From assembly GCA_046314355.1 (NCBI GenBank), contig JBKBWQ010000001.1:576001-640000 (forward strand): DNA of 64,000 bases, read 5' to 3'. Source of the DNA: Candidatus Altimarinota bacterium. GTDB taxonomy: Bacteria > Patescibacteriota > Gracilibacteria > 1-14-2-50-48-13. The notes below the pieces were generated by a model that worked only from the letters and a program-made list of their open reading frames with translations, was not told the origin of the DNA and searched no databases. A program made the translations under genes and the position numbers. Positions 1,101 through 30,401 of this stretch are shown piece by piece. Numbering within the stretch: position 1 is the stretch's first letter; each line of letters starts with the position of its first letter.

Positions 1101-1190
1101 GTAAGCAATAAGAGCACAGAAGTAATTAGACTCAATCATTAAGTAATTGAGCTCAATTATTGTAGCCCAATTATTCCATTACTTAATTCC
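1101..1190. repeat. Modular palindromic intergenic array, copy 1
   Basis: AATTAGACTCAATC-ATTAAGT-AATTGAGCTCAATT-ATTGTAGCCCAATT; 14- and 7-nt units shared with other intergenic copies. Confidence 0.85.
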
Positions 1191-1202
1191 TCCCTTATTT
1201 CT

Positions 1203-1240
1203 AAAAAAAGAACCCCATGCTTTGGTAAGCTCTGGGATTC
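1203..1240 (-). terminator. Intrinsic terminator
   Basis: Minus strand reads GAATCCCAGAGCTT-ACC-AAAGCATGGGGTTC followed by T7. Confidence 0.7.
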
Positions 1241-1752
1241 TATTCATCTCATAGGCAAGAAAAATAGAATCTTTCCTTTGTGATGTGTGTTTTTGTTTGA
1301 GTGACAACTGCTCAAAAGTGTAATTCATGCTGTGCTTCGGTCATATACCTCTCCTAATGCCGAGGAGTGACTGATCCCTCGAAGGGATCTGAACCCCGCC
1401 TCGTCTCATATACGAAGTGGAAGAAAATCCAGGTGTAATGATCGGAAGCAAAGCTCGTCAGAATTAATGAGAAGAGGGATGTCATCTCCCTTCTCTTTTT
1501 CGCAAAGCAGTGAAAAATGAATATTCCTTAAATACTTAAGAACTACTCGTTACTCACTACTTACATCTTATTGTAAAGGATCAAATGTAGGACTCCGGCC
1601 GGAAGTCTTTTGCTTTCCTTACTTCTTGTAGGACTTCGCTCTCCGTGGCAGGAAGGAAATCTAAATGGTAAGAATTGCTTTTTTGTTTTTTAAAATTTGT
1701 TTTGGTTTAGTCTTCTTTTTGTTTTGTTTGAAGCTGTTGTATTTTTAAGCTT
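1203..1752 (-). ncRNA. Candidate structured non-coding RNA (unit A), family unknown
   Basis: Upstream sigma70-like TTGCTT-16-TAAGAT, A-rich leader, GC-richer body with hairpins (GATCCCT/AGGGATC 1373-1389; 1469-1495), terminator at the end, no ORF of 60 aa or more. Confidence 0.4.
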
Positions 1753-1873
1753 CATAGGATCTTAATCTTTTTAAAAAATAAAGCAAGAAGAAGATGAGTG
1801 ACAAAGTATGTTTATTGTTTTAAAACATGATTATTTATTATAAAATGTATTTACTGTAAACAGATTACGTGAA

Positions 1874-15757: not shown

Positions 15758-16192
15758 TTAGTCCTGTTTATCAGAGGTTTTAATCTTCTGAAAAATTGTA
15801 TTAAGAACGCCATTCACAAATTTTGAGCTTGTCTCACTGCCGTAGTTTTTTGCAAGCTCGACTGCCTCATTGATAGCAACAACCTCTGGTACTTCTTTAT
15901 TGAAAAGTATCTCAAAGATACCGATATATAAAATACATCGGTCTATGAGTGCAATTTTTTCCAATGGCCATTCAGGAGCAAAGTCTCTGATATGCTGTTC
16001 AATAGTTTCTAGATTTTTATCTATACCTTCCAATATTAGCTGTGTGAATTCCAGCTTCTTATCTTGATACTCATAAAAATGTCTATTGTTTTCTGTAAGA
16101 ACATCCAGCAAGGGCTTATTTCTTTCACGAAACTCCCACGTATAAAGAGTTTTGAGCGCAAATTCACGACCCACATGTCTATTAATCTTCAT
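15758..16192 (-). CDS. nusB: Transcription antitermination factor NusB
   Basis: 'VAINEAVELAKNYG...FVNGVL'. Confidence 0.95.
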   Translation of the reverse strand: MKINRHVGREFALKTLYTWEFRERNKPLLDVLTENNRHFYEYQDKKLEFTQLILEGIDKNLETIEQHIRDFAPEWPLEKIALIDRCILYIGIFEILFNKEVPEVVAINEAVELAKNYGSETSSKFVNGVLNTIFQKIKTSDKQD

Positions 16193-28109: not shown

Positions 28110-28763
28110 ATGAGTAATTTGAAGAAAGTCATCGTTACAACTATTGGTTTGGGAATTGTTTTTATTGGCGGTTGTACACAGCCACCAATTACTGCTAAGC
28201 AAGCTACTAGTGAAATCTCTTCACAGAAAAGCACAGATAAACCAAAGGAAGGAGGCATAATTGTCAGCTTTCCTTTCGAGAAATTTCAAAAGGAATATGA
28301 TAAAAAAATAGCAGAGGATGAGGTTGAGAGAGAGAAAAAGGCAAAGTCTAATGGAGATAAGATAGTTTTTATGATGAGTCCTGATTCTGCAAAGAATACT
28401 ACCATTATAAAAATTAAGAATGTTGGCGACGAGAATGTGTATTTAGAGGATGTTACATTCCTTTTTTATGCAGAAAAAACCACATTTTTAAAAAAAATTG
28501 AAATTCTTGATAAAGAAAAGATAGTTCTGGCATACGAAAATATTGCATTAGGTGAGAAAGGAACTCTAATAGAAATGCGTCCACACCATCTCATCCCAAA
28601 AGATGAGGTAAAGGAACTTACTCTTAGATATACAAGAAACAGCGATAGTGATACTGAAGTGATTGTGCTCTACCAGTCTGACTATTCAGTTATCGGTAAT
28701 AGCACTGGAATACTTTCACGTAAAAAAGAAAGTGAATACATATATGTAGGTAATTCACTATAA
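28110..28763 (+). CDS. Hypothetical lipoprotein (AT-rich orphan)
   Basis: MSNLKKVIVTTIGLGIVFIGGC lipobox-like start after AAGGA. Confidence 0.7.
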   Translation: MSNLKKVIVTTIGLGIVFIGGCTQPPITAKQATSEISSQKSTDKPKEGGIIVSFPFEKFQKEYDKKIAEDEVEREKKAKSNGDKIVFMMSPDSAKNTTIIKIKNVGDENVYLEDVTFLFYAEKTTFLKKIEILDKEKIVLAYENIALGEKGTLIEMRPHHLIPKDEVKELTLRYTRNSDSDTEVIVLYQSDYSVIGNSTGILSRKKESEYIYVGNSL

Positions 28764-28839
28764 AAATTGACCGCAAGGGTATTACAAACTGGCCATAATT
28801 AATTTTATGGTCTTTTTCTCTATTCCTCCCTAAACACAT

Positions 28840-28877
28840 AAAAGTCGCCATTTGGTAATGGCGAACTTTTTATTTTT
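28840..28877. terminator. Bidirectional intrinsic terminator
   Basis: AAAAGTCGCCATT-TGGT-AATGGCGAACTTTTT. Confidence 0.75.
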
Positions 28878-29310
28878 GTTTCGTTTGGAGTGCGAGTTTT
28901 GGCGCCCCAAGAAACGTATAGAAGTCGACGGAACCTCTCTGTTGTAGATCTCAACCTTACTTCGGTAATACAATGTCCCGCATCCCAAGGGTCGCTATAG
29001 CGAGATTTGATGAGCCGATTTTAGACTTGCTCCAAAGAGGAAGACCAGCCGCACCGCATCTCAGCAGTGGTGGAGGAGCAATTGGGAGTCACCCAAACGT
29101 CCAGTTTCATAAAGTAGAGACAAATGAGAGCAAGATGGAATCCCTACGGGAGAGAGCCTACATCTCTGGCTCAGAAAGTTTAGTGCCTCTCAGTGAACCT
29201 TGGTAGATTATGAGTGGTACGCTTCCGTGAGACACGATGAGATGAATAGGCCATCTATCTTTCATTTATCCCTGCTTGTGTTGTTAAAGATCTTTTTTGT
29301 TTTGATTTTC
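28841..29310 (-). ncRNA. Candidate structured non-coding RNA (unit B), family unknown
   Basis: TTGATT-17-TAAGAT promoter, A-rich leader with GATCTTTAACAA, GC-rich hairpin-dense body (TTGCTCC/GGAGCAA, TCGCTATAGCGA, GAGCC/GGCTC), terminator; no long ORF on the minus strand. Confidence 0.45.
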
Positions 29311-29387
29311 ATAGTATCTTAATCGATTTAAATAAATTAATCAAATAAGAATCATTTACACATACTGAAATTTATTTTAAAAGAACA

Positions 29388-30401
29388 TCAGCCTGCATTT
29401 TCCCAAATACTGCGCATGCGAATACTACGCTTAAAATCTCTTTCAAAAAGCTGTTCCTTCACGGTATTTACAATTTGCATGTCGTTTGTACCTAGATTGA
29501 ATTCTTTGTTTCGTTTCATGCTTCTATATGTTGCATTTGCAGAACCAAGAGAAACATATTCATTATCAATCAGATATACCTTTAAGTGATTGAGTGTTTT
29601 TCCATAAATAAATATATCTATATCAAAATATCTCATCCACTTCACAGTAACAGCATGCTGAAGCCTAGTAATAAGATGATTACTAACCTTTGGGACTATG
29701 ACTTTCACATCTATCCCTCGTTTTTTAGCATCGATCAGTGCCCTTATCAGCCTTATATCAGTAATATACGGTACTTCGATAAAAATGTTTTTCTTTGCGG
29801 ACCTAATCCGCTTATTGAGATCTTCTTCAATGTCGTTTTGCTTAAAATCAGTCACGAGCATGTCATAATGATTATTCCCCCATTCGAGTTTATATGAAGA
29901 AACCTCGCCATCCACCCACTCGGCGAGAAAAATACGTTCAAATCCAGCAGCAATGAGAGGTTCTCGTATATGAATAAAAATATCATGCCATTCAAATTGG
30001 TAATGGTCCCCGATATTCATTCCTCCAGTAAATGCTTCCTTTGAGTCTATTACAATAATCTTTCTATGATCAAGCTGGAAGTGGAAAGGATTTGGTTCTC
30101 CCGCATGTACGATCTGCACTCCTTGAGTTTTCAAAAAACGCAGCAGCGCCATTCGTCCAGTGATTGCTCTCCAGTTGAATAAGGAAAAGTAATATGTACC
30201 AATTTGATCATACATTACCTTCACATCTAAACCTTCTCTTGCCTTTTTTGCGAGAATCAAAGCCATATCCCATCCAGTCTTGTCATCAGCAAAGATAAAC
30301 ATTTCAATATAAATAGAATGCTCTGCCTGCTCCAGCCGTTCAAAAAGGGTCCTGAATGCAGAAATGCCGTCCACCAAAAGCGTAAAATGTACAGGAAGCA
30401 T
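29388..30401 (-). CDS. Phospholipase D / cardiolipin synthase-like protein
   Basis: Two HKD motifs: 'DHRKIIVIDSKEAFTGGMNIG' and 'NHLKVYLIDNEYVSLGSAN'. Confidence 0.9.
   Translation of the reverse strand: MLPVHFTLLVDGISAFRTLFERLEQAEHSIYIEMFIFADDKTGWDMALILAKKAREGLDVKVMYDQIGTYYFSLFNWRAITGRMALLRFLKTQGVQIVHAGEPNPFHFQLDHRKIIVIDSKEAFTGGMNIGDHYQFEWHDIFIHIREPLIAAGFERIFLAEWVDGEVSSYKLEWGNNHYDMLVTDFKQNDIEEDLNKRIRSAKKNIFIEVPYITDIRLIRALIDAKKRGIDVKVIVPKVSNHLITRLQHAVTVKWMRYFDIDIFIYGKTLNHLKVYLIDNEYVSLGSANATYRSMKRNKEFNLGTNDMQIVNTVKEQLFERDFKRSIRMRSIWENAG

Follow-up and report, generated by a model that had tools for sequence, protein, structure and literature searches.

The 64,000-nucleotide (nt) stretch of DNA analyzed here, referred to as the window, belongs to the genome of a Candidatus Altimarinota bacterium of the Gracilibacteria (G000; 1.69 Mb, 28 contigs, 98% complete) and is carried, among the sequencing runs listed, by DNA runs of a hot-springs metagenome and by no RNA run. 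Positions 28839-29344 of its minus strand hold a unit, designated B, which an earlier reading of the sequence (the original prediction) had proposed to be a large non-coding RNA (ncRNA) gene. On the evidence presented below, we are confident that unit B is a real gene for a conserved, structured ncRNA whose family is not represented in Rfam. A second minus-strand unit at 1205-1790, unit A, is treated here as its paralogue. Comparisons were made with three genomes of the same order (G001, G002 and G003) and with one of another order (G017); the four B-type copies are unit B itself, copies a and b of G002 and the copy of G001. The features of unit B, in the direction of transcription, and the position of unit A are as follows.

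29339..29344, minus strand: -35-like hexamer TTGATT (direct reading).
29316..29321, minus strand: -10 hexamer TAAGAT (direct reading).
Near 29309, minus strand: predicted transcription start, with the conserved start region ACTATGAAAATCAAAAC after the -10 hexamer (sequence only).
29281..29293, minus strand: boxA-like element AGATCTTTAACAA in the A-rich leader (direct reading).
29121..29275, minus strand: variable 5' domain, a predicted long irregular hairpin closed by AGAUAGAUGG/CCAUCU (single-sequence folds).
29196..29209, minus strand: hairpin AAUCU-ACCA-AGGUU within the 5' domain, a second U-ACCA-A tetraloop (fold).
29109..29119, minus strand: 5' strand of P1 (CUCUACUUUAU), closing the four-way junction; partner 28950-28960 (fold).
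29075..29102, minus strand: P2 hairpin, loop UGACU at 29087-29091 (fold and covariation).
28994..29065, minus strand: P3, a long irregular hairpin (fold and covariation).
28962..28988, minus strand: P4 hairpin, conserved loop GGGACAUU at 28972-28979, preceded by the conserved junction AGCGACCC.
28950..28960, minus strand: 3' strand of P1 (GUAAGGUUGAG); partner 29109-29119 (fold).
28920..28938, minus strand: P5 hairpin, loop CCGUC at 28927-28931, proposed kissing partner of the P2 loop.
28878..28915, minus strand: P6 hairpin, outer stem GUUUC...GAAAC, followed by an A-rich tail (fold).
28838..28865, minus strand: intrinsic terminator, stem UCGCCAUU/AAUGGCGA, tetraloop ACCA at 28853-28856, U tract (scan and fold).
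1205..1790, minus strand: unit A, diverged paralogue with core at 1326-1513 and an ACCA-capped terminator (match to the core model, promoter and leader likeness).

Read along the minus strand, unit B consists of a promoter, an A-rich leader, some 400 nt of GC-enriched sequence, an A-rich tail and a hairpin followed by a T tract. Direct reading bears out the proposed promoter, TTGATT-17-TAAGAT, with TTGATT at 29344-29339, a 17-nt spacer and TAAGAT at 29321-29316. The same layout recurs in G000 at unit A (TTGCTT, 17 nt, TAAGAT) and at the 16S ribosomal RNA (rRNA) gene (TTGACT, 17 nt, TAAGAT), the -10 hexamer being identical at all three promoters, and exact occurrences of GATTAAGATNCTATGAA in the G000 genome are confined to A and B. 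At the matching -10 position, the hexamer is TATAAT or TACAAT in G002, with GCRATGAAGATCAAAAC after it, and TACAAT in G001. The boxA-like word previously noted in the leader was read as AGATCTTTAACAA at 29293-29281, and related words stand at the same place in G001 (TGATCTTTTACAG) and G002 (TGTTCCTTTCCAA and TGCTCCTTTGCAC). The body is as GC-rich as had been claimed, with a GC fraction of 0.44-0.51 across 28850-29224 versus 0.26-0.37 in the flanks, and the scan located the terminator expected after the A-rich tail at 28864-28845, where a stem of 8 pairs closes a 4-nt loop and is followed by a T tract. Unit B hence has the makings of a stand-alone ncRNA gene: its own promoter, on sequence and conservation, its own terminator and no co-oriented gene downstream.

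Elsewhere in G000, the region C1:791155-791200 contains a boxA-like word, TGTTCTTTCACAA, which follows a TTGATT...TATACT promoter and precedes the 5' end of the transfer-messenger RNA (tmRNA) gene, and a NusB gene (107 bits) is located at 15794-16168 on the minus strand of the same window as unit B. In the region C1:1208243-1209000, the 16S gene is followed by a terminator-like hairpin and then by apparently coding sequence, not by 23S, and because no 23S gene comes directly after it the rRNA genes of G000 appear to be unlinked.

As the original prediction held, the minus strand of unit B is essentially free of open reading frames (ORFs), with none above 52 amino acids (aa); the longest on either strand is a plus-strand 77-aa frame at 28973-29206. 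Translation of this frame, which had been considered as an objection to an RNA gene, finds no backing in its conservation as a protein: it matches only copy a of G002, over residues 1-43, and has no match in copy b of G002, in G001 or in G017. Insertions and deletions among the homologues measure 1, 2 and 4 nt and break the frames.

The homologue search called for by the original prediction was carried out with blastn and revealed matches in three of the four genomes of the order (G000, G002 and G001). G002 harbors two copies 3.7 kb apart, each 73% identical, one over 306 nt and the other over 173 nt, and the G001 copy is 70% identical over 162 nt; no homologue was detected by blastn in G003 (81% complete). 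Conservation extends over about 290 nt, starting at TCTCTACTTTATG and reaching the terminator, and the 5' region varies in length. For more distant relatives we relied on R1, a covariance model of the 171-position core that was built from the four close sequences and was the sole model used in searches; the distribution searches cover samples of genomes, and weak relatives could be missed with a model of this origin. Among 151 genomes of the class, R1 identified two full-length matches in G017, at 34.9 bits (E = 1.6e-7) and 19.3 bits. Blastn with the G017 copy against 151 class genomes returned its own paralogue and A-rich leader noise only, and R1 on 151 genomes of the phylum, 143 of them from other classes, recovered only G000's own copy. 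A degenerate motif scan of 401 class genomes yielded the known copies and G251, which R1 did not support (best 6.5 bits). R1 run with filters off on 21 other genomes returned no match at their ftsA-like locus, and none was obtained in viral contigs with a broader pattern scan or in phage genomes with blastn. An order-specific pattern matched G002 (two loci), G001 (one) and, as a chance hit, the coding region of a gammaproteobacterial metagenome-assembled genome (MAG) among genome contigs, and two loci identical to those of G002 among metagenome contigs.

R1 also matches unit A, the "ncRNA A" of the original prediction, at window positions 1326-1513 on the minus strand (26.1 bits, E = 2.6e-6), and the promoter and leader of A and B are 76% identical over 70 nt; blastn with unit A gave no match in G001, G002, G003, G017 or G032. 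On this sequence evidence, unit A is a diverged paralogue of B, and B is hence not unique. The family then totals seven copies in four genomes, three of which carry two copies each, and its hosts are a few hot-spring and groundwater genomes of the Gracilibacteria/Peribacteria. Between the two G000 units there is a stretch of perfect complementarity 13 nt long, involving CUAUUCAUCUCAU in the 5' domain of B (29237-29249) and AUGAGAUGAAUAG ahead of the terminator of A (~1240-1252), a length reached by none of 200 shuffles; the corresponding figures are 11 nt for the G002 pair (6 of 200 shuffles) and 9 nt for the G017 pair (128 of 200).

Folding analyses point to an elaborate and conserved structure. 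The predicted 471-nt transcript (29309-28839) folds at -141.6 kcal/mol versus a shuffle mean of -115.3 (z = -4.0), and none of 100 shuffles was as good. RNAalifold on the four B-type sequences yielded 74 pairs, 26 of them with compensatory changes. The 171-position core forms a four-way junction comprising P1 (29119-29109/28960-28950), P2 (29102-29075), P3 (29065-28994) and P4 (28988-28962). In a MAFFT alignment of the four sequences, 93.6% of the cells pair versus 81.4% in shuffled controls, a value that none of 500 shuffles reached, 17 of 47 pairs show compensatory changes and slid controls pair at 42-47%; in a model-fitted alignment of all seven sequences the proportion is 92.4% versus 73.6%, with 30 of 47 pairs compensatory, all of these being statistics on a structure derived from the very sequences tested, with the seven-sequence alignment leaning towards model R1.

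The individual helices differ in how they vary. In P1, four of ten pairs change on both sides among the seven sequences, and the stem of P2 occurs as TTGGG/CCCAA, CCGGG/CCTGG, GTGTGG/CCACA and CGAG/CTCG, around a (G)UGAC loop that is invariant among the B-type copies of the order. The 14-pair main helix of P3 shows changes on both sides in 10 pairs with four sequences and in 13 with seven. In P4, six of seven copies, G017 included, retain both GGGAYA in the loop and ACCRAAG on the 3' side; the loop of unit A is AGGAGAGG. The outer stem of P6 is invariant and its inner stem carries few compensatory changes. The 5' domain is common to copy a of G002 and is much shorter in copy b and in G001; its internal pairing is a single-sequence prediction with few sequences behind it. 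A pairing of AGATCT between the leader and the region after the core, seen in a single-sequence fold, was dropped, as inspection found that it is not conserved in G002.

This structure retains part of the stems listed in the original prediction. Covariation supports TTGGG/CCCAA, which is P2, as well as the terminator stem, and AGATG/CATCT appears in single-sequence folds within the predicted closing stem of the 5' domain. Four internal stems (TTGCTCC/GGAGCAA, CACTGC/GCGGTG, TCGC/GCGA and TTAC/GTAA) do not hold up: across four homologues 73.5% of their cells pair versus 73.2% in shuffled controls, 281 of 500 shuffles reach the observed value and only one of 21 pairs is compensatory. Their bases belong to P1, P2, P3 and P4.

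Two sets of loops recur throughout the family. The terminator is capped by U-ACCM-A in all seven copies on stems that differ (CAUU/AAUG, GACU/AGUC, GCUU/AAGC), unit A reading GCUU-ACCA-AAGC. Among 616 strict terminator-like hairpins in the G000 genome, two have an ACCA loop and none an ACCC loop; the ACCM-capped terminator is specific to the family. A second U-ACCA-A site is present in B (AAUCU-ACCA-AGGUU) and, at the matching place, in copy a of G002 (ACGU-ACCA-ACGU), again with the loop kept and the stems different. Inspection by eye for a UGGU or GGGU partner of the ACCM loop identified no consistent one. The loop of P2 and that of a hairpin in the 3' domain are complementary in all seven copies, over 3-5 Watson-Crick pairs: UGAC/GUCR in the B type, UGACA/UGUCA in A and UCACC/GGUGA in both G017 copies, where the two loop sequences have exchanged places. 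With loops defined by hand, the shuffle fractions for this complementarity range from 0.01 to 0.38 per copy. The pattern suggests that the two loops may form a kissing contact.

Searches for a known RNA class were uniformly negative at this locus. A search of Rfam 15 (4227 models, gathering thresholds) reported only three transfer RNAs (tRNAs) in the window, all elsewhere, and a second pass over 28500-29700 with E up to 10 gave six matches of 15.5-21.2 bits against cut-offs of 41-134, the best being 21.2 bits against a cut-off of 102.3. No consistent Rfam family emerged across five homologous loci. ARAGORN found neither a tRNA nor a tmRNA at B, and where the original prediction had singled out a tRNA-like CCA, at 29068, the homologues of G002 and G001 read CUUCUACUG, CACUACUG and CUUCUAACG. 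A tmRNA or tRNA-like identity was rejected on the blank ARAGORN result, the unconserved CCA and the presence of the G000 tmRNA at C1:790733-791154. RNase P RNA was likewise rejected, with no model match at B and the RNase P RNA of G000 at C1:1260698-1261138 (149 bits). The 6S model RF00013 has no match in the G000 genome, and a 6S identity was rejected on this result and on the covarying four-way junction, which is not an extended rod with a central bubble. Membership in the OLE, ROOL, GOLLD or raiA families was rejected as well, as no model matched and the gene neighbors are unlike the contexts of those RNAs.

The signal recognition particle (SRP) RNA models RF00169 (small) and RF01854 (large) have no match in the G000 genome, and neither do PF02978 (Ffh M domain) and PF00448 (SRP54 GTPase). 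An SRP RNA identity was set aside because the SRP proteins are undetectable as well. Across 41 class genomes, PF00448 gave short partial P-loop-like matches only, and RF00169 was found in none of 41. In PMC8080830, many bacteria of the candidate phyla radiation (CPR) are reported to lack two SRP subunits, so that the failure to detect SRP here is not a new observation. The RNA family itself was not found in the passages searched of that paper and of the preprint 10.64898/2026.10.21.760802, nor in the literature searched, which was covered mostly at the level of listings and abstracts. With no Rfam match, conservation across genera and covarying helices, the original proposal of an undescribed structured RNA is supported.

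The neighborhood of the gene offers little by way of functional association. Within the order, it is flanked by an ftsA-like gene and by the secE-nusG-rplK-rplA cluster, and the interval contains lineage-specific insertions. At five of the seven loci the genes downstream are convergent with the RNA; one G017 copy (ftsW, murG) and unit A (an ABC-transporter gene) are followed by genes on the same strand. The neighbors encode PLD-like, FtsA-like, ABC-transporter, release-factor, P-type ATPase, DUF2339, FtsW, S-layer-like and MarR proteins, and others without a family. The gene upstream of B, at window positions 29391-30401 on the minus strand, codes for a PLD-like (HKD) protein with two domains (PF13091, E = 3.5e-37); G001 lacks this gene at the matching location, which marks it as a lineage-specific insertion. 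In G002 (C3:18000-37000), each RNA copy adjoins a P-type ATPase gene, one convergent and one divergent. A dispersed, partly palindromic intergenic repeat (about ATTGRGCTCAATNATT) has some 120 hits within three mismatches in the G000 genome, mostly in clusters of two to four. Such clusters flank unit A (window 1113-1197 and 1881-1996), adjoin the RNase P RNA gene (C1:1260571-1260672) and occur at window positions ~22190, 25867 and 30588.

Together, we consider it likely that unit B is a stand-alone gene for a structured ncRNA of about 470 nt, of an undescribed family, which acts in trans and most probably serves as a ribonucleoprotein (RNP) scaffold. We infer this role because of the type of promoter, the size, the conserved nucleotides in junction and loops and the lack of a target in cis; in our view B is neither an mRNA nor a cis-regulator nor a simple antisense RNA. 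Under the scaffold reading, transcription would start from a promoter of the 16S rRNA type, the boxA-like element would probably recruit the NusB/NusE antitermination machinery, and transcription would stop at the gene's own intrinsic terminator. The product would then fold into a variable 5' domain, the four-way-junction core (P1-P4) and a 3' domain (P5, P6), and would probably be compacted by the kissing contact between the P2 loop and the 3'-domain loop. The AAAGCRACCC junction, the GGGAYA loop, ACCRAAGUA and the one or two U-ACCM-A tetraloops may provide contact sites for a partner. The outcome would be a stable and abundant folded RNA acting in trans and made together with the translation apparatus.

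Several observations weigh against this reading. A simple sigma-70 scan omits the promoter of B (8 of 12 positions versus the consensus) and found 6 sites versus 6.6 expected. Words with up to two mismatches to the boxA consensus number about 60 in the AT-rich G000 genome and are common by chance, and none is evident in the leaders of either G017 copy. The transcript of about 470 nt, 29309-28839 on the minus strand, is a prediction from sequence, and so are its ends. The core structure used in the MAFFT test was taken from the same alignment, and seven copies, four of them B-type and close kin, from four genomes mean that the covariation statistics overstate independence. Unit A owes its place in the family to one 26-bit match and a shared promoter and terminator, and a whole-genome search did not report it. 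The kissing contact was proposed post hoc, and B itself is the weakest case, with three Watson-Crick pairs and a shuffle fraction of 0.38. Finally, a Pfam scan of 22 neighboring proteins of the seven copies identified no shared partner.

Other explanations account for parts of these data. The RNA could be a base-pairing small regulatory RNA (sRNA), or a sponge for a global RNA-binding protein, in which conserved unpaired segments or loops would bind mRNAs by pairing or titrate the protein, with the remaining fold serving only for stability. The stand-alone promoter and terminator, the A-rich tail ahead of the terminator, the conserved loops and the 13-nt complementarity between A and B (0 of 200 shuffles) would fit such a regulator, and two paralogues per genome are common among base-pairing regulators. 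However, a length of about 470 nt, a covarying four-way junction and conserved junction nucleotides make it far more elaborate than typical sRNAs; inspection showed no repeated protein-binding motif, GGA not being enriched and only the P4 loop being conserved; the complementarity of A and B does not recur in the G017 pair; and no target was found, complementarity of B to the rRNA-gene region being at most 11 nt and none of at least 9 nt being found to tmRNA or RNase P RNA, which is at chance level. We regard this explanation as improbable. Still less probable is an RNA of a known housekeeping class, such as a 6S-like regulator of RNA polymerase or a replacement SRP RNA, that has diverged too far for the models to recognize. 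The blank 6S and SRP RNA searches in G000 leave room for one, and the rRNA-type promoter is like that of other stable RNAs, but the undetectable SRP54 GTPase and M domain would leave an SRP RNA without a partner, the four-way junction is not the 6S rod with its central bubble, tmRNA and RNase P RNA are located elsewhere in G000, and the RNA occurs as two paralogues and was found in only four of about 400 class genomes.

We give equally little credence to an origin in a mobile element or prophage, with the RNA as remnant or cargo and not as a cellular RNA, for instance a guide or scaffold whose protein gene has been lost. Patchy taxonomy, several copies per genome, the unrelated contexts of the G017 copies and the repeat clusters bracketing unit A are all compatible with mobility. 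The repeats around A are, however, an intergenic family found genome-wide, no gene for a transposase, integrase, reverse transcriptase or nuclease adjoins any of the seven copies, position is kept within the order, and the viral contigs and phage genomes searched returned no match. The least probable explanation of all is a small-protein gene, on the 77-aa plus-strand frame or a short minus-strand ORF, or a riboswitch or other cis-regulatory leader. ORFs of 31-77 aa do occur on both strands, and by inspection a short ATG-led frame starting MKIKT is common to B and both G002 copies, but the ATG of this frame is at most about 6 nt from the -10 hexamer and would probably not be transcribed. The broken frames and the unmatched 77-aa ORF argue in the same direction, as do substitutions that track base-pairing and not codons; and B and the copies in G002 and G001 are followed by convergent genes, which leave a leader nothing to regulate.

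A trans-acting RNP scaffold invites comparison with other RNAs. Like OLE, ROOL, GOLLD and raiA, unit B spans several hundred nt with covarying multi-helix junctions and strongly conserved unpaired nucleotides, and is a stand-alone gene of narrow taxonomic range and orphan function. Unlike them, it has no sequence or structure match to those Rfam models and is hosted by CPR/Gracilibacteria; at about 470 nt it is also smaller than OLE, ROOL and GOLLD and has no phage or tRNA-island context. The oapA protein gene adjoins ole, whereas the copies of this family have no comparable associated gene. With tmRNA and RNase P RNA, unit B shares an rRNA-type -10 and GC enrichment in an AT-rich genome, and with the G000 tmRNA a boxA-like word between promoter and structured body; it differs in the absence of a tRNA-like end or of their conserved motifs and in its restriction to a few genomes. 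It resembles 6S as a gene of the abundant-RNA type, and 6S likewise has two paralogues per genome in some bacteria, but 6S folds into a rod of ~180-200 nt interrupted by a central bubble whereas B has a four-way junction and extra domains. An analogy with the phi29 packaging RNA (pRNA) concerns the loop contact only: complementarity of two loops is kept while their sequences differ between lineages. In phi29 such loops mediate intermolecular assembly; B has no phage context and another size and fold, and its complementarity does not distinguish an intramolecular from an intermolecular contact. According to PMC12286853, OLE, ROOL and GOLLD form homo-oligomers. A and B might, as protomers, assemble themselves into a larger RNA architecture, or might be a ribozyme, and would then be a new class of large ornate RNA in Peribacteria-like Gracilibacteria, with the covarying complementary P2 and 3'-domain loops and the U-ACCM-A tetraloops acting between molecules as in the RNA-only cages of ROOL and GOLLD and with output tied to ribosome synthesis through the rRNA-type promoter and boxA; we think this unlikely.

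The narrow distribution of the family limits its general importance, and the small number of sequences limits inference. No lineage-specific ncRNAs of this lineage were described in the part of the literature searched. Few large, intricately folded orphan RNAs are known from bacteria, and each has proved biologically or structurally unusual; unit B adds a candidate from a lineage without cultivated representatives. The genomes of CPR/Patescibacteria are very small, and a 470-nt RNA with an rRNA-type promoter, kept in one or two copies, is therefore unlikely to be idle in these organisms.

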